Shown here: piece after piece, positions 5,088-35,372 of the stretch
How positions within the stretch are numbered: the first letter of the stretch is position 1
How the letters are laid out: each line of letters begins with the position of its first letter
Virus record (IMG/VR): IMGVR_UViG_2897346870_000001
Location: 1 to 41,297 of that record
DNA from: a virus
Lineage: Duplodnaviria > Heunggongvirae > Uroviricota > Caudoviricetes
Length of the DNA stretch: 41,297 nucleotides
Direction: 5' to 3' (one strand)
Notes under the pieces: model-generated
Told to the model about the DNA's origin: nothing
Database searches by the model: none
The model's input: only the letters and a program-made list of their open reading frames with translations
Translations under genes and position numbers: made by a program

Positions 5088-5102
5088 TTACCTATTAGGT
5101 AA
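5088..5102. promoter_or_regulatory. OL-like operator palindrome TTACCTATTAGGTAA
   Basis: Near-perfect 15-bp inverted repeat at the head of the leftward early operon, just downstream of the repressor gene terminator. Confidence 0.5.
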
Positions 5103-5159: not shown

Positions 5160-5744
5160 TTATTGTTTGTTTTTTTCGTTCTGGTTGATGACAAATTCAA
5201 TATAACTTTCGATCTTTGCTTTCTCGGTTTCGGGTAACAATGCGTAGCGCGAGCGGTCATAGTTGATGGTCGCAGGGTCGTGCGGGTGAATCAGTAATTC
5301 ATAGCCGTGACGCCCGAATGCGGATGCAACATTCTCCAGGGTGGAAATGGAAACGCTGACCTCATTGTTTAACAGGCGGCTGATTGTCACCTGGGCGACG
5401 CCGGATGCGCGGTGAAGTTTTCCCTGTGTTGAAAGGTCGCGGCTTTCGCTCATCCAGCGTTCCAGGTTGTGAGCCGCCAGCTGACCAATGTCGCTTGGGC
5501 CGACAGGCTGAAAACCTTCCTGAGAAAGCGAGCGATCGATATCAAGCCAGTTACGTGGTTTATTGGCGGCAGCTTCAATTTTTCGCGCAACCTGGTCGCC
5601 GATAACCTTCTTGCCAAGAGCCCAGCGGTTTACCAGATTTGCCTGAGTTCCAAGTTTTTCTGCCATCCGCGTCTGAACACCATTGAATTCACGGTCGATC
5701 AAGTCGTTGAGATTTTGCCTGCGGACGTCCTGGATACTTTTCAT
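5160..5744 (-). CDS. Prophage repressor, tandem HTH (XRE-type), no peptidase S24 domain
   Basis: 194 aa with two HTH-like segments (TRMAEKLGTQANLVNRW and ASGVAQVTISRLLNN); divergent from the Cro-like gene across a three-operator region; no LexA-like Ser/Lys autocleavage module recognised. Confidence 0.75.
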   Translation of the reverse strand: MKSIQDVRRQNLNDLIDREFNGVQTRMAEKLGTQANLVNRWALGKKVIGDQVARKIEAAANKPRNWLDIDRSLSQEGFQPVGPSDIGQLAAHNLERWMSESRDLSTQGKLHRASGVAQVTISRLLNNEVSVSISTLENVASAFGRHGYELLIHPHDPATINYDRSRYALLPETEKAKIESYIEFVINQNEKNKQ

Positions 5745-5799: not shown

Positions 5800-5862
5800 T
5801 TACCCAACAGGTAAATGCACCTCATAGGTAACTATCCTTGATTTTTGTTACCTTATGGGTGA
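5800..5862. promoter_or_regulatory. Tripartite OR-like operator region with divergent promoters
   Basis: Three 15-bp sites: 5800..5814 TTACCCAACAGGTAA, 5817..5831 GCACCTCATAGGTAA, 5848..5862 TTACCTTATGGGTGA. Candidate rightward promoter (-35 TTGTTA 5845..5850, -10 TATTAT about 5868..5873) overlaps the third site. Confidence 0.55.
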
Positions 5863-8130: not shown

Positions 8131-8207
8131 TTACCTGTTAGGTAATAAAATATTCTAAAATCTATTGATTTCGTGTCTTATGTGGTTTTTAATTACCTCA
8201 GAGGTAA
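8131..8207. promoter_or_regulatory. Two operator palindromes upstream of the nin-like operon
   Basis: 8131..8145 TTACCTGTTAGGTAA and 8193..8207 TTACCTCAGAGGTAA; the second overlaps the Shine-Dalgarno of the 8211 gene; motif ATGTGGTT at 8180..8187. Confidence 0.45.
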
Positions 8208-11428: not shown

Positions 11429-11471
11429 GCATGGTACTATTACCACAACGGTAACTATTACCACGGTGGTT

Positions 11472-14335: not shown

Positions 14336-14412
14336 TGGCGTGGCATGCAGGATTCGAACCTGCGACCAACCGCTTAGAAGGCGGTTGCTCTGTCCAACTT
14401 AGCTAATGCCAC
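14336..14412 (-). tRNA. tRNA-Arg (anticodon UCU)
   Basis: 77-nt minus-strand cloverleaf: 7-bp acceptor stem GTGGCAT/ATGCCAC, anticodon stem ACCGC/GCGGT with loop CTTCTAA (UCU), T-arm GCAGG-TTCGAAT-CCTGC, discriminator G plus encoded CCA; close to E. coli argU in the 3' half. Confidence 0.85.
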
Positions 14413-14734: not shown

Positions 14735-14749
14735 TTACCTGAAAGGTAA
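14735..14749. promoter_or_regulatory. Operator-like palindrome TTACCTGAAAGGTAA upstream of the structural operon
   Basis: Perfect-arm copy of the dispersed motif; CATATGTGGTT at 14791..14801. Confidence 0.4.
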
Positions 14750-31412: not shown

Positions 31413-31619
31413 TCATTTTCGTAAAGCCATACAAATCATGGCTTGCACCCCACCGGCAGAAGGTATGGTGATTTCCACCATACCCTTCGAGAAGCGTTGA
31501 GAAATCTTCTTATGTTGAGATTTCCAGTCTAGACCCATTCCCTCAACGATAGGTTTCATTGGGGTGTACGGTTCGCCGTTGTGATTGACAACATAAAGTT
31601 CTGCGCCGTGGAATGGCAC
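31413..31619 (-). pseudogene. Possible truncated antirepressor/Rha-like N-terminal fragment
   Basis: 68-aa GTG-initiated ORF (VVNHNGEPYTPMKPIVEGMGLDWKSQHKKI) resembling N-terminal DNA-binding domains of Rha/Ant proteins, with no Shine-Dalgarno and no C-terminal domain. Confidence 0.2.
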
Positions 31620-31766
31620 GTTGATAGTAGTGACAAATTTGAAACATCGCTGGTTGTAAGCCAGCAGATGCTCGTTATTTTACGTCGCGGCACAATTTCT
31701 CGCTGCTGGCTCTTTTACACGCATTAACCAAATATGGTTGATTTTAATATCCACCTGTGCCTATTA

Positions 31767-31846
31767 TTACCTTTGCGGTAAATTTACATCGCACTCCTCT
31801 TGTGCCATAGTAATCGGGCACTGGCAAAATCCAGTGCCGGGATTGG
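31767..31846. repeat. Inverted repeat IR-A, left copy (antirepressor promoter/leader)
   Basis: About 80 bp, near-identical in reverse complement to 34928..35007; includes operator TTACCTTTGCGGTAA (31767..31781) and the palindromic hairpin GCACTGG-CAAAAT-CCAGTGC. Confidence 0.8.
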
Positions 31847-32048
31847 TCTCCCGGATTACTACAGAGGCACATATGCCGCATAAGCGGTTTTTTTATGTGT
31901 AAAGCGCACCTATTCTATGGTGGGCTGTGTGGGGGCACCGAAAGGTGCGCCGGGTTCCTTTGTAGCCGGTAAGACCAACTCTGCACAGTTCACCACCATC
32001 TGATTGGTCTCAGCGGTGGTGATTAACCTAACTACAAAGGTGATCGCC

Positions 32049-32741
32049 ATGAATACCAAACCTTCCATCTTTTCCTTTGAGTCATCCTGCCAGATCCGTA
32101 TGTTCATGATTGACGGAGAACCTTGGTTTGTCACCAAAGATGTGTGCAATGCTTTGAATATTGATGTTACACAAGCGAGAAAACTTGATAAAAAAGGCTG
32201 GAACAAAAAGGGGCTGTATTCAATACAGACCCCTGGTGGAATACAAGAACTATCCATCGTTTCAGAATCAGGTCTCTACATCCTTATTCTGCGTTGCAAA
32301 GAGGCAATGACTGAGGGAACGAGAGCATTCAGATTTCTTGAATGGGTTACAGGTGAGGTTCTTCCTCAGATCCGCCGCACCGGAAGCTACATTAAAAACT
32401 CGCTCCCGCAGGAAGAGCGCATAAAGATGGTTGCCGACCAGGTAGCCAACGCCACGGCGTCAGCAGTAATGCAGGCGATGAAGATAGAGAACAAAACCTA
32501 CAGTGCCCCACTGAAGCCCGGCTACCGCAGCCTGATTCATTCGCCGTCTGGTGTTCTCGGCCTGACGGAGAACTCACTGCTGATGAATCTGCTGAACCAG
32601 TTACAGGAAGACGGGCATGACGTATCGGGCGCGGCGGCGGAGTTGACCACCATGTTCTGCTACATCGTCGGTGTGAACAAATGCCTGCGTGATATCCAGA
32701 CGCACGCGGAGTACATCAACGACAAAGCAGGGTTCTTCTGA
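32049..32741 (+). CDS. Antirepressor, BRO-N N-terminal domain plus shared C-terminal domain (copy 1)
   Basis: N-terminus MNTKPSIFSFESSCQIRMFMIDGEPWFVTKDVCNALNI is a BRO-N-type fold; C-terminal 125 aa nearly identical to the gene at 34013..34723; AGGTGA Shine-Dalgarno. Confidence 0.7.
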   Translation: MNTKPSIFSFESSCQIRMFMIDGEPWFVTKDVCNALNIDVTQARKLDKKGWNKKGLYSIQTPGGIQELSIVSESGLYILILRCKEAMTEGTRAFRFLEWVTGEVLPQIRRTGSYIKNSLPQEERIKMVADQVANATASAVMQAMKIENKTYSAPLKPGYRSLIHSPSGVLGLTENSLLMNLLNQLQEDGHDVSGAAAELTTMFCYIVGVNKCLRDIQTHAEYINDKAGFF

Positions 32742-32743
32742 CG
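32341..32743. repeat. Inverted repeat IR-B, left copy (3' half of antirepressor 1)
   Basis: About 400 bp, near-identical in reverse complement to 34011..34413; produces mirrored 61-aa artefact ORFs in the track (32392..32577 and 34177..34362). Confidence 0.85.
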
Positions 32744-32778
32744 AGCGGCGGCACAGGGATGTGCAAAACGAAACTATC

Positions 32779-32815
32779 GTGACATGTCACAGGCCGCTTT
32801 CGCGGCCTTGTTTTT
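32779..32815 (+). terminator. GTGACATGTCAC copy 3 fused to a strong rho-independent terminator
   Basis: Palindrome 32779..32790 directly followed by AGGCCGC-TTTC-GCGGCCT plus TGTTTTT (32791..32815). Confidence 0.7.
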
Positions 32816-32975
32816 AACGAATGCCACCGCCACCCGGGCGGGAATCCGCAGAACGCCCACCGCAGCGGGAGCCGTCAGCAGCAGTGTCGCTGTCGTGCTG
32901 ACAACGACCGGCAAAGGCCTGAGTTGAAGCTACCAGAGACAACAAAACGAACAGTGCAGCAAATGCTTTTTTCAT
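32814..32975 (-). CDS. Small secreted protein (53 aa) with signal peptide
   Basis: MKKAFAALFVLLSLVASTQAFA signal peptide then a Gly/Arg/Asp-rich 31-aa mature region with two Cys; start at the internal ATG of track ORF 32814..33047. Confidence 0.4.
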   Translation of the reverse strand: MKKAFAALFVLLSLVASTQAFAGRCQHDSDTAADGSRCGGRSADSRPGGGGIR

Positions 32976-33056
32976 TGTGAAATTTCCATCTATAAACCAC
33001 CTCAATGTGGCGTCAATGAGTGTAGCACTGACTTTTGTTTCGTCCATAAAAAACTA

Positions 33057-33569
33057 CTATGCAGGCTTTTTGGATTTGTACGAATAATCCCACGGATAAA
33101 CATTTCTACTAAGTGGAGCTGTATTCGTTCGTTCATGAAATAATTTTGTGAAATTCAATACGGAATCCATCCAAACTTTTGCGTTAGCTTTGGTGTGTGC
33201 GGGCGGGTCCCAATAAGCTAGTAAGGCTGCATCTCTTATTTCATTGACTGCATATATGAGATATGCGTTACTGGTTGGTTTTGGCCTGTAATTTCCTTGT
33301 TCATCAATCAATCCATATGACCACTCATCCCAACACTGTTCAGTACATGAGTATGAATATGATGCATATTCACCAATATTGACATGAACCTTTCTGAGAT
33401 GGAAGCCTAATACTTCCTCTGGTCTTTCAAAAAGAGTATCTTTTCCCAGATCAGGATGATGACCATGACGCCAGTGTTGTTTAAAAGCATCTTTTAGCGA
33501 AATCAGAAAGTCATCAGTTTTAAACTCACCAGTAGGTATAACCTTCCCGCTATACTCACTCAAAAACAT
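33057..33569 (-). CDS. YafO-like toxin candidate (type II toxin-antitoxin family)
   Basis: By-eye alignment to E. coli YafO recalled from memory: HPDLGKDTLFE vs LPDIFGRDALYD, LRKVHVNI vs ERVAHIHL, AYLIYAVNEIRDAALLAYWDPPAH vs AHLVYCQGAFDEQAWLLIAILKPEPH. AT-rich; overlaps the upstream gene by 14 nt. Confidence 0.5.
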   Translation of the reverse strand: MFLSEYSGKVIPTGEFKTDDFLISLKDAFKQHWRHGHHPDLGKDTLFERPEEVLGFHLRKVHVNIGEYASYSYSCTEQCWDEWSYGLIDEQGNYRPKPTSNAYLIYAVNEIRDAALLAYWDPPAHTKANAKVWMDSVLNFTKLFHERTNTAPLSRNVYPWDYSYKSKKPA

Positions 33570-33882
33570 CGAATTCCTCTTCCTTCATATGCGTTTCTAA
33601 TGAGTTAAGCTGGCGGAAAGATATCTCTTTTGATTCTGCAGATGAGAGCTTTTTTATCCGCTTTATATTCTTTGTGATAGGAATAGACATTGTATGCACA
33701 TCAGCGGATGCTCTTGGCTTTGTGCTGATAAAAATATGGCGCAATGCCGCATTTTCACTATTGAACGAGCCAATAGCTGATTTACGTGCTACAACCTTAC
33801 CAGTAAAAATACGACTCTTGCTACGCTTTGCATGAGTTCCGCTTCTTACCGGACCTCTCATCACGAATCCAAGTTTTGTCAT
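33556..33882 (-). CDS. Putative antitoxin/partner of the YafO-like gene (unknown family)
   Basis: 108 aa, basic with acidic C-terminus (MKEEEFDVFE); first gene of a two-gene overlapping operon; GGAG Shine-Dalgarno. Confidence 0.35.
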   Translation of the reverse strand: MTKLGFVMRGPVRSGTHAKRSKSRIFTGKVVARKSAIGSFNSENAALRHIFISTKPRASADVHTMSIPITKNIKRIKKLSSAESKEISFRQLNSLETHMKEEEFDVFE

Positions 33883-33924
33883 CTTTAATCTCCGGTAAGT
33901 TACAGGTATAAAATAAAAACAGGT

Positions 33925-33939
33925 TTACCTTTAAGGTAA
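33925..33939. promoter_or_regulatory. Operator palindrome TTACCTTTAAGGTAA upstream of the toxin-like operon
   Basis: Perfect-arm copy of the dispersed motif, 43 nt upstream of the 33882 start on the minus strand. Confidence 0.45.
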
Positions 33940-34010
33940 TAGTACGCTATTCACCCACAGTCTGCAATCTGTACAGAATTATTTAAAGGCACATCCCTGT
34001 GCCGCCGTTC

Positions 34011-34413
34011 TGTCAGAAGAACCCTGCCTTGTCGTTGATGTACTCCGCGTGCGTCTGGATATCACGCAGGCATTTGCTCACACCGACGATGTAGCAGAAC
34101 ATGGTGGTCAGTTCCGCCGCCGCGCCCGATACATCATGCCCGTCGTCCTGCAACTGATTCAGCAGATTCATCAGCAATGAGTTCTCCGTCAGGCCGAGAA
34201 CACCAGACGGCGAATGAATCAGACTGCGGTAGCCGGGCTTCAGCGGGGCGCTGTAGGTTTTGTTCTCTATCTTCATCGCCTGCATTACTGCTGACGCCGT
34301 GGCGTTGGCTACCTGGTCGGCAACCATCTTTATGCGTTCTTCCTGCGGGAGCGAGTTTTTAATGTAACTTCCGGTGCGGCGGATCTGAGGAAGAACCTCA
34401 CCTGTAACCCATT
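34011..34413. repeat. Inverted repeat IR-B, right copy
   Basis: Reverse complement of 32341..32743. Confidence 0.85.
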
Positions 34414-34723
34414 TGCGAAAGCGGTAGGGGATAGTGCCTGGTGTCACTGCGTCGCGGCAGCGGAGGATCAGTGTGTAGAGGCCTGACTCGGAGATGATGT
34501 TGATCTCTTTTACTCGGCTGTCAAAAATTGCACGATGTTCATGCCCTATGTTGAACATAGACCTTTCATCATCATCCAGTTTTTCAAGTGCTTGGGTGAC
34601 GTTTTGGATACGCAGCGCACTACAAACGTCTTGGGCTACAAACCATGGTTGGCCATCGATAATGATGGAACGGATAGGGTTAACAGATTCAAATTTGAAG
34701 ATGGCAGTTTGAGCATTAGCCAT
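34013..34723 (-). CDS. Antirepressor, BRO-N N-terminal domain plus shared C-terminal domain (copy 2)
   Basis: N-terminus MANAQTAIFKFESVNPIRSIIIDGQPWFVAQDVCSALRI (BRO-N-type); C-terminal domain differs from copy 1 at only 2 of about 118 residues; GGAG Shine-Dalgarno. Confidence 0.7.
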   Translation of the reverse strand: MANAQTAIFKFESVNPIRSIIIDGQPWFVAQDVCSALRIQNVTQALEKLDDDERSMFNIGHEHRAIFDSRVKEINIISESGLYTLILRCRDAVTPGTIPYRFRKWVTGEVLPQIRRTGSYIKNSLPQEERIKMVADQVANATASAVMQAMKIENKTYSAPLKPGYRSLIHSPSGVLGLTENSLLMNLLNQLQDDGHDVSGAAAELTTMFCYIVGVSKCLRDIQTHAEYINDKAGFF

Positions 34724-34927
34724 GGTGGTTATCTCCACTTAGTGATTTTAATCACCACCGCAACGCCAATTACTGGTGGTGAACTGGACAAGGTTGGCGT
34801 ACCGGCCTAAGTGGTACCGGCGTCCTTTCGGACCCCTGCCCAGCCCACCATAATTCGGATATAGCTGTGCTTAACGCATAAAAAAACCACGTCTGGCGTG
34901 GTATGCGCCACTTAGTAACTCGGGACG

Positions 34928-35007
34928 CCAATCCCGGCACTGGATTTTGCCAGTACCCGATTACTATGGCACAAGAGGAGTGCGATGTAAATTTACCTCA
35001 AAGGTAA
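34928..35007. repeat. Inverted repeat IR-A, right copy (antirepressor 2 promoter/leader)
   Basis: Reverse complement of 31767..31846; contains operator at 34993..35007 (TTACCTCAAAGGTAA). Confidence 0.8.
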
Positions 35008-35038
35008 ATATAAGCACTCCACTTGGTAATTGCAAACC

Positions 35039-35296
35039 TTATCTGGTTTGCTTTCGTAATTGTTCGGCACAATAGTCGAGATGTGTTTGCAGATCCTGCA
35101 TAGACATCTGTGAGCTGGTGACGTAGTTAATCAGTGCAGTCAGTTCGGCAAGTGGGCCATCGACATTAAATCCATCCTTATCGAGATCCCGGAGTAATTT
35201 CATCAAGTGCGATCCCTCCACCAGTGATCTGACGCCTCCCGGCGTGTGAATCCTTTCGGTAAATCCCTCTTCCAGTGGATAGTGATACTGCTGCAT
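35039..35296 (-). CDS. Stand-alone paralogue of the antirepressor C-terminal domain
   Basis: 85 aa; TPGGVRSLVEGSHLMKLLRDLDKDGFNVDGPLAELTALINYV...DLQTH parallels SPSGVLGLTENSLLMNLLNQLQEDGHDVSGAAAELTTMFCYI...DIQTH of the two antirepressors; GGAGAAG Shine-Dalgarno. Confidence 0.45.
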   Translation of the reverse strand: MQQYHYPLEEGFTERIHTPGGVRSLVEGSHLMKLLRDLDKDGFNVDGPLAELTALINYVTSSQMSMQDLQTHLDYCAEQLRKQTR

Positions 35297-35372
35297 CTTA
35301 TCTTCTCCATGCAATAACTGTATAAATATACAGTATCAAATAATTTGTTTGCTATCCAGCACGTTTTGCAAA

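Follow-up and report, generated by a model that had tools for sequence, protein, structure and literature searches.

The window, as the whole analysed stretch of 41,297 nucleotides is called here, belongs to a phiV10/epsilon15-like E. coli phage (podovirus). It carries two Bro-N antirepressor genes, ant1 and ant2, each of which lies downstream of an isrK RNA and then a C4 RNA on the same strand (Table 1). Both ant open reading frames are intact. The C-terminal halves of Ant1 and Ant2 are nearly identical and their N-terminal Bro-N domains have diverged; the 3' halves of the two genes form a 504-nt inverted repeat that flanks a small ORF and a YafO-like pair. Debris of further antirepressor genes is present in the same region. 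Of 5,426 complete E. coli genomes, 568 contain parts of this 3.4-kb region and only 2 of these have the twin arrangement in full, which also occurs in two IMG/VR contigs (L074 and L086). No RNA is annotated at these loci in RefSeq or in related phage records.

The leaders of the two genes are 86% identical over 321 aligned columns, and the differences between the copies are concentrated in six short sites, a1, a', a2, b1, b', and b2, where they compensate each other within each copy. A sequence-only reading of the window had described the leaders as one element of about 270 nt with three common hairpins, H1, H2, and H3. All three hairpins exist in both leaders where they had been placed, and the view of a structured regulatory RNA holds; the single element, however, resolves into two separate known RNA genes, IsrK/c4-a1b1 and then C4, and the transcribed part would be about 231 nt (31818-32048), as 270 nt takes in the promoter and an operator-like palindrome. 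Because two copies of 86% identity cannot alone show selection, each helix was tested on distinct IMG/VR homologues. A pattern based on IsrK retrieved 120 viral contigs, and 118 of the 125 loci also carried C4.

Table 1. Features of the two antirepressor cassettes (numbering of the window).
Feature	Cassette	Position	Strand	Remarks
Operator-like palindrome TTACC-N5-GGTAA	1	31767..31781	.	Adjoins -35 of cassette-1 promoter
Promoter-like TTTACA-17-CATAGT	1	31783..31811	+	TG ahead of -10; predicted start ~31818
IsrK/c4-a1b1, copy 1	1	31818..31894	+	Rfam isrK (RF01394), 74.7 bits (gathering score 50)
a1 UUGGUCU	1	31843..31849	+	Loop of IsrK hairpin 2; exact reverse complement of a'
b1 CUACAGAGG	1	31859..31867	+	IsrK linker; 8 Watson-Crick pairs and one G.U with b' CCUUUGUAG
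C4, copy 1	1	31913..32000	+	Rfam C4 (RF01695), 78.6 bits (gathering score 45)
b' CCUUUGUAG	1	31957..31965	+	C4 P3 loop; complementary to b1 and b2
a' AGACCAA	1	31972..31978	+	C4 three-way junction; complementary to a1 and a2
H3, copy 1	1	31990..32022	+	UCACCACC (31990-97) with GGUGGUGA (32015-22); a2 in loop on 4-bp inner stem
a2 UUGGUCU	1	32004..32010	+	H3 loop
b2 CUACAAAGG	1	32032..32040	+	Over ant1 Shine-Dalgarno (AAGGUGA), 8 nt before ATG; perfect complement of b'
ant1	1	32049..32741	+	Bro-N antirepressor, 230 aa; ATG at 32049; Pfam Bro-N E 1.8e-13
Promoter TTTACA-17-CATAGT and palindrome	2	34963..35007	-	Promoter 34991-34963; palindrome TTACCTCAAAGGTAA 34993-35007
IsrK/c4-a1b1, copy 2	2	34956..34880	-	Rfam isrK (RF01394), 63.5 bits (gathering score 50)
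a1 UUGGCGU	2	34931-25	-	IsrK copy 2
b1 CUAAGUGG	2	34915-08	-	IsrK copy 2
C4, copy 2	2	34855..34772	-	Rfam C4 (RF01695), 66.0 bits (gathering score 45)
b' CCACUUAG	2	34814-07	-	C4 copy 2
a' ACGCCAA	2	34800-34794	-	C4 copy 2
H3, copy 2	2	34752..34782	-	5' arm 34782-75, 3' arm 34759-52; loop carries a2
a2 UUGGCGU	2	34769-63	-	H3 loop
b2 CUAAGUGG	2	34735..34742	-	Over ant2 Shine-Dalgarno (GUGGAG), 11 nt before ATG
ant2	2	34013..34723	-	Bro-N antirepressor, 236 aa; ATG at 34723

The promoter-like sequence is identical in both cassettes and stops 7 nt upstream of each IsrK 5' end. The palindrome TTACC-N5-GGTAA, which adjoins the -35 element of both promoters, occurs at 14 sites in the window against 0.64 expected, and pairs of these sites are located on both sides of a 194-aa HTH ORF (5160-5744). 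It is probably a repressor operator, which would place the cassettes under the control of the prophage repressor, in the manner of the C1-controlled Oc4 of P1.

At curated thresholds, an Rfam scan of the whole window gave four matches at these loci, one isrK and one C4 in each cassette. Hfq binding and the existence of two isoforms, a short RNA and a read-through mRNA, are among the features expected of an IsrK RNA. In addition to the isrK model, the c4-a1b1 model (RF03163), a member of the same Rfam clan as C4, matched the first two IsrK hairpins in a permissive Rfam scan, with scores slightly below its gathering score of 46.7 in both copies (39.9 bits, E 7e-8 in copy 1; 43.4 bits, E 6e-9 in copy 2). 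H1 is IsrK stem 1 (GCACUGG-CAAAAU-CCAGUGC, 31818-24 with 31831-37; copy 2 at 34956-34937 on the minus strand), and the C-to-U change that had been pointed out in copy 2 falls at stem position 2, where a U.G wobble keeps the pairing. Hairpin 2 of copy 1 pairs 31838-42 with 31849-53, and each IsrK is closed by an intrinsic terminator (31875-31888 and 34902-34886, each followed by U7). On 79 distinct IsrK sequences (alignment A3), 99.6% of the cells of H1 were paired and 5 of its 7 pairs were changed on both sides, and the slid-partner controls, calculated for the whole structure of H1 and hairpin 2, gave 19-46% paired. Two covarying 5' hairpins, a1 in the loop of hairpin 2, b1 immediately on its 3' side and a Rho-independent terminator are all found here, which is the layout of the a1b1 motif described by Weinberg et al. 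(PMC2864571 supplement).

The C4 model matches both copies in full length with a three-way-junction fold. In copy 1 the fold is composed of a 17-bp basal stem (31918-34 with 31979-95), helix P2 (31935-48) and helix P3 (31949-53 with 31966-70). H2 proved to be P2: the stem is GCACC-GAAA-GGUGC in copy 1 (31935-31948) and GUCC-GAAA-GGAC in copy 2 (34833-34822), so that both copies have a GAAA loop and the stem carries the paired double change described earlier. The minimum free energy (MFE) structure of each C4 copy is the Rfam structure, every element folded alone takes its Rfam structure, and RNAalifold, unaided, returned the same C4 fold from the 74 homologues. On these 74 distinct sequences (alignment A2), 98.8% of the C4 cells were paired, with changes on both sides at 15 of the 27 pairs, and slid-partner controls were paired at 34-49%; H2 by itself was paired in 97.4% of cells and changed on both sides at 5 of 5 pairs. 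Both C4 copies stop 49 nt before the ATGs of their Bro-N ant genes. By alignment to the annotated C4 of P1, the mature RNA is predicted to comprise 31919-31997 (79 nt) in copy 1 and 34849-34775 (75 nt) in copy 2. A C4 RNA is expected to be released from a precursor by RNase P as a stable molecule of about 77 nt that represses ant in trans. The sequence carries hallmarks of such processing: the AU|G at which P1 C4 is cut is invariant, and the stem is followed on its 3' side by ACCA. We infer a putative RNase P cleavage at the AU|G and a tRNA-like 3' end made up of the stem, ACC, and then A.

The decisive covariation, and the strongest signal in the region, is not within the hairpins but in the intermolecular or long-range a and b sites, which the sequence-only reading had passed over. 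In both copies in the window, an exact 7-nt match links the a sites, and the b sites match over 8-9 nt. Every one of the unique homologous leaders (96 of 96) has an a1 that is perfectly reverse-complementary to its a', a count to be read with the retrieval in mind, as the IsrK-derived pattern fixes part of a1 and limits a-site diversity; a copy of a2 stands 4-9 nt after C4 in the same 96 of 96. The b site varies far more widely: 42 distinct P3 (b') loops were found among the 74 sequences, and they are matched by their own targets, the longest perfect complement of the P3 loop having a median of 8 nt in its own b1 and 9 nt in its own b2, compared with 3-4 nt in leaders with different loops. In 61 of 76 leaders, 7-12 nt separate the end of b2 from the ATG. 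The a and b types also occur in different combinations, for example the cassette-1 a with the cassette-2 b in contig L105 and the reverse in L008, and the codes have therefore been exchanged by recombination. As the two cassettes of the window differ at both sites, they are probably orthogonal, each C4 controlling only its own ant gene, like the heteroimmune pair P1/P7. RNAduplex on longer segments separated cognate (-27.5 to -30.2 kcal/mol) from non-cognate pairs (-14.7 to -25.6 kcal/mol) only partially; because of the shared constant stems such matrices are too noisy, and complementarity restricted to the loops was used instead.

H3, the 8-bp stem with differing loops, is likewise present in both copies, and it folds and covaries as a third hairpin. 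It lies outside both Rfam models (isrK and C4) and is not an independent hairpin: the eight bases of its 5' arm, at the end of the C4 match, also form the 3' strand of the C4 basal stem (17 bp) and the ACC tail. Since this strand is shared, the two helices exclude each other. Folded alone, H3 has -17.1 and -16.8 kcal/mol in the two copies (z -3.7 and -4.1). On the 74 distinct sequences of alignment A2, 95.3% of its cells were paired and 5 of 8 pairs were changed on both sides; slid partners were paired at 29-76%, and 0 of 500 column shuffles reached the observed score. Haplotypes such as CAUCACC/GGUGAUG, the CACCGCC/GGCGGUG type and CGCCACC/GGUGGCG revealed that changes in the C4 3' strand are followed by the 3' arm of H3, also in cases in which the 5' strand of C4 stays constant and pairs by G.U, from which it follows that H3 is selected as a pairing and is not merely a repeat of the 5' strand. 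In P1 an equivalent helix (CCUGC.ACC/GGU.GCAGG, -17 kcal/mol) encloses a2. The comparative evidence from these alignments is clear that the C4 basal stem and H3 are mutually exclusive conformers, both under selection. With H3, all three hairpins covary in large alignments, the kind of check proposed at the outset, and compensatory changes keep each of them paired in 74-79 distinct homologues, so that the earlier claim of selection on RNA structure stands.

The whole leaders fold more stably than shuffled sequences (z -6.1 for copy 1 and -4.2 for copy 2). The MFE of leader 1, -100.5 kcal/mol, combines a duplex between the middle of IsrK and the a'b' region of C4 with H3, and the best conformer with C4 folded is 4.4 kcal/mol higher, at -96.1 kcal/mol; in leader 2 the same two conformers are within 0.6 kcal/mol. 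A candidate extra helix, in which the start-codon region would pair with the 5' strand of C4 or with the 3' arm of H3, is suggested by the MFE of leader 2 (AUGGUGG/CCACCAU) and by constrained folds. In the homologues its Watson-Crick runs are mostly 3-4 nt; the duplex energy exceeds that of shuffles only weakly (-9.9 versus -6.65 kcal/mol), and only 15% of the leaders beat 95% of their shuffles.

Each ant gene is, very probably, governed by a control cassette of the P1 immI type that consists of two known RNAs, IsrK and C4, with a different pairing code in each cassette. The family identity, the structures, the covariation and the complementarity are shown by the sequences; how the cassette would be transcribed and processed, and how and in which direction it would regulate ant, we infer as follows. 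Transcription from the promoter beside the operator-like palindrome would yield IsrK first, that is, two hairpins, the linker and the intrinsic terminator, and read-through would continue into C4, a three-way-junction RNA with a tRNA-acceptor-like end, and into the ant 5' UTR. C4 would be matured from the read-through transcripts. Its patches b' (P3 loop) and a' (junction) would pair with b2 and a2, occluding the ant Shine-Dalgarno and blocking Ant translation. The a1 and b1 sites of IsrK may compete for C4, either in cis, from within the long transcript, or in trans, when IsrK is the short RNA that ends at the terminator. When the promoter fires, IsrK would be in excess and C4 would be titrated, so that the IsrK:C4 ratio would set Ant synthesis. 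H3 would be confined to transcripts that have not been processed and whose C4 is unfolded, and would present a2 in its loop. More tentatively, and as a possibility rather than an expectation, H3, which is conserved between this phage and P1, may be an uncharacterised cis switch of the whole family. Through pairing of the C4 3' strand and ACC(A) tail with a downstream sequence that mimics the C4 5' strand, it would decide between mature, diffusible C4 (folded and competent for RNase P) and unprocessed, translatable ant mRNA displaying a2, with IsrK:C4 pairing in cis picking the conformer.

Several elements of this scheme come from related systems. In P1, C4 is required for full ant repression (PMC8198154) and is excised from its precursor by RNase P; C4 is a substrate of this enzyme (PMC11143913), and a1 and b1 have been proposed as competitors of a2 and b2 for C4 (PMC2864571 supplement). 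The likeness to P1 c4 that the sequence-only reading had suggested is supported, both leaders matching Rfam C4 and isrK above gathering score. The order of elements in P1 immI according to the NC_005856 annotation, i.e., Oc4 operator, promoter, a1, b1, C4, a2, b2, and gene, is the same as here, and the two loci also agree in the position of a1 in a hairpin loop, of a2 a few nucleotides after C4 and of b2 on the ribosome-binding site, and in the C4 fold. P1 and P7 are reported to differ in the specificity of c4 for its target, which is the basis of their heteroimmunity (PMC12197685), and the two cassettes of the window resemble this pair. Unlike P1/P7, the cassettes described here have no icd-like ORF, b2 being placed directly over the Shine-Dalgarno of ant; a Bro-N protein stands in the place of P1 Ant1/2 as the antirepressor; the a1b1 element has its own intrinsic terminator (the IsrK form); and two heterospecific cassettes are inverted around a YafO-like module in one genome, which is that of a phiV10/epsilon15-like podovirus and not of a P1-like plasmid prophage.

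Other phage RNAs share part of this architecture. P22 sar, which was also suggested as a possible model for the leaders, controls ant by RNA pairing at the ribosome-binding site; it is an antisense transcript that spans the arc-ant junction on the opposite strand, whereas the regulator here is encoded upstream on the same strand. It was excluded, since no sar match was obtained at E<=1 in 31700-35100. Neither arc nor mnt lies beside these ant genes; the permissive Rfam scan of the same interval returned only isrK, C4, c4-a1b1, and one chance-level RsmV fragment. A single promoter-like site on the opposite strand (32134-32106) has no counterpart in copy 2, and the number of promoter-like sites is at chance level. 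The CI RNA of P4 (seqA/seqC) and the CA RNA of N15 are similar in that they are processed from the leader of the operon they control and have complementary sites up- and downstream. The N15 CA RNA acts by premature transcription termination. The same is true of the P4 immunity RNA, and IsrK has been called a structural homologue of P4 SeqA by Hershko-Shalev et al. (PMC4825925). The downstream target in the window, in contrast, is a Shine-Dalgarno sequence.

An experimentally tested system with isrK is the isrK-orf45/STnc1160-anrP locus of the Salmonella prophage Gifsy-1, for which two alternative structures were proved by compensatory mutations; the partner of IsrK there is the region downstream of it, bound both in cis ("structure A") and in trans (PMC4825925). 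It resembles the cassettes here in an IsrK with three hairpins including the terminator, a middle part of IsrK complementary to a C4-like region, alternative conformers, and a downstream antirepressor gene; the in vitro RNA used there, estimated at nt 1-180, would end before the H3 3' arm. The tested effect of Gifsy-1 IsrK works via orf45 coupled to anrP, and overexpression of STnc1160 did not relieve toxicity (PMC4825925); on these grounds, the simple logic of repression by C4 and titration by IsrK is for the isrK subfamily a proposal. Positive control of this kind has accordingly been considered for the window: the long transcript would be silent, short IsrK acting in trans would open a leader ORF in the C4 region whose translation switches on ant, and C4 would be a folding domain of the mRNA and not a diffusible repressor. 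Such control is the only mechanism experimentally tested in an isrK-bearing cassette (PMC4825925), and in its favour all 74 homologues keep an AUG in the 5' strand of C4, whose frame remains open as far as the downstream start in 31 of 61 leaders (14 and 10 for the two other frames). The earlier statement that no conserved leader peptide frame exists holds for the window, in which the frame of this AUG (31917 in copy 1) runs for 28 codons in the first copy and for 14 in the second. Gifsy-1 requires translation of orf45 coupled to anrP; the frames here are short and uncoupled, ending 45 and 83 nt before ant, and hence coupling cannot apply as described for Gifsy-1. Moreover, the conserved AUG has no Shine-Dalgarno in front of it, b2 lies directly on the ant Shine-Dalgarno, as P1 b2 lies on the icd ribosome-binding site, and the invariant AU|G is also where RNase P cuts C4 in P1, which accounts for its conservation without translation. 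Positive control through a leader ORF is on balance unlikely at these loci. A leader peptide or translational attenuation was likewise rejected for this window on account of the short frames, the missing Shine-Dalgarno and the absence of coupling to ant, and survives for other subfamilies.

The mutual exclusion of H3 and the C4 basal stem, both of which covary, would also suit a terminator or attenuator, in which C4 folding decides between termination at H3 and read-through into ant. The sequence after H3 is not a U run in either copy (AUUAACC in copy 1, AUUAAAA in copy 2), H3 is not among the calls of the terminator scan, and its loop invariably carries a2, which points to target presentation; this role for H3 is very improbable. 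Of the attenuator idea put forward from the sequence, what stands is the IsrK terminator, which does lie inside the leader. The leaders could finally be decaying remnants of a recent duplication that have no regulatory role, as their 86% identity and the antirepressor debris nearby might suggest. Decay can be given next to no weight: the a/b differences compensate each other within each copy, all helices are intact and both copies score well above the Rfam thresholds, neither ant ORF is broken, and hundreds of E. coli genomes carry these same cassettes.

Under the preferred reading of an immI-type cassette in front of each ant gene, the three hairpins are parts of catalogued RNAs and not a new leader structure, and the loci are new, unannotated members of known families. 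The c4 RNA has been known since 1990, isrK and c4-a1b1 since 2008-2010 and the Gifsy-1 mechanism since 2016; mildly novel are the conserved alternative helix H3 and the stacking of cassettes with different codes. If the switch tentatively assigned to H3 is real, its combination with freely recombining a/b codes would amount to a modular orthogonal RNA switch, stacked in twos, as in the window, or in fours, as in contig L083. Besides the mutually exclusive C4 basal stem and H3, what is of modest wider value is the specificity codes of the family, which are freely exchanged (42 b' loops and several a types), and natural genomes with two or four differently coded cassettes suggest built-in orthogonality. 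Orthogonal cassettes of this type could serve as synthetic RNA regulators, and could also help in understanding the cross-induction of co-resident prophages.

The four bases AUGG at the 5' edge of the C4 RNA (window 31917-31920 in cassette 1 and 34851-34848 in cassette 2; columns 10-13 of A2, the alignment of C4 and downstream sequences) are invariant among the 74 distinct homologues, and they fall where RNase P cleaves P1 C4. In 31 of 61 leaders the reading frame that begins at this AUG has no stop before the downstream start, compared with 14 and 10 leaders for the two other frames; in the window's own leaders it closes before that start. A candidate small variable hairpin also lies between the 3' arm of H3, the helix pairing the C4 3' strand with a downstream arm, and b2, the C4-complementary site over the ant Shine-Dalgarno (window 34755-34742, minus strand; A2 columns ~118-135). 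A few of its bases also belong to the terminal part of the H3 3' arm, copy 2 provides an example (GUGAUUAAAAUCAC), and in homologues the sequence of the interval differs yet can still form a hairpin. Opposite leader 2 and the 5' end of ant2, RefSeq places a "hypothetical protein" (L123:4042-4311, equivalent to window ~34540-34810, plus strand), which is likely an annotation artefact; RefSeq annotates no RNA genes there.

The palindrome TTACC-N5-GGTAA occurs 14 times in the whole window, against 0.64 expected. Pairs of sites flank a 194-aa HTH gene (5160-5744, minus strand), and lone sites lie at the promoters of the two ant cassettes, a YafO-like operon and an ant remnant. The set probably represents dispersed operators of the prophage repressor, as P1 C1 likewise has a dispersed operator set.

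A 504-nt inverted repeat with 89% identity (32239-32742 / 34012-34515) is made up of the ant1 and ant2 3' halves, and the segment bracketed by it could invert via homologous recombination. Antirepressor remnants lie on both sides of the cassettes, and the ant locus looks like a hotspot where antirepressor modules recombine.

Features of the window, including 10 of the 14 palindromic sites
Feature	Position	Strand	Remark
TTACC-N5-GGTAA	5026-5040, 5088-5102, 5800-5814, 8131-8145, 8193-8207, 11440-11454, 14735-14749, 31767-31781, 33925-33939, 34993-35007		
tRNA-Arg (UCU)	14336-14412	-	phage-borne
P22_AR_N fragment	31413-31619	-	antirepressor remnant left of cassette 1; E 7e-21
Small ORF	32814-33047		between repeat arms
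YafO-toxin match, weak	33057-33569		between repeat arms
108-aa ORF, unknown	33556-33882		between repeat arms
91-aa ORF, Ant-C-terminal-like	35039-35314	-	antirepressor remnant right of cassette 2

Outside the window, four isrK-C4-antirepressor cassettes were observed in tandem in another locus of the homologue set (L083:2352-4993, minus strand), with a period of ~850 nt. The b'/b2 code, formed by a C4 antisense patch and its downstream complementary site, is distinct in every one of the four, and three different a codes are present; these tandem cassettes form a natural array of RNA switches that are apparently orthogonal.
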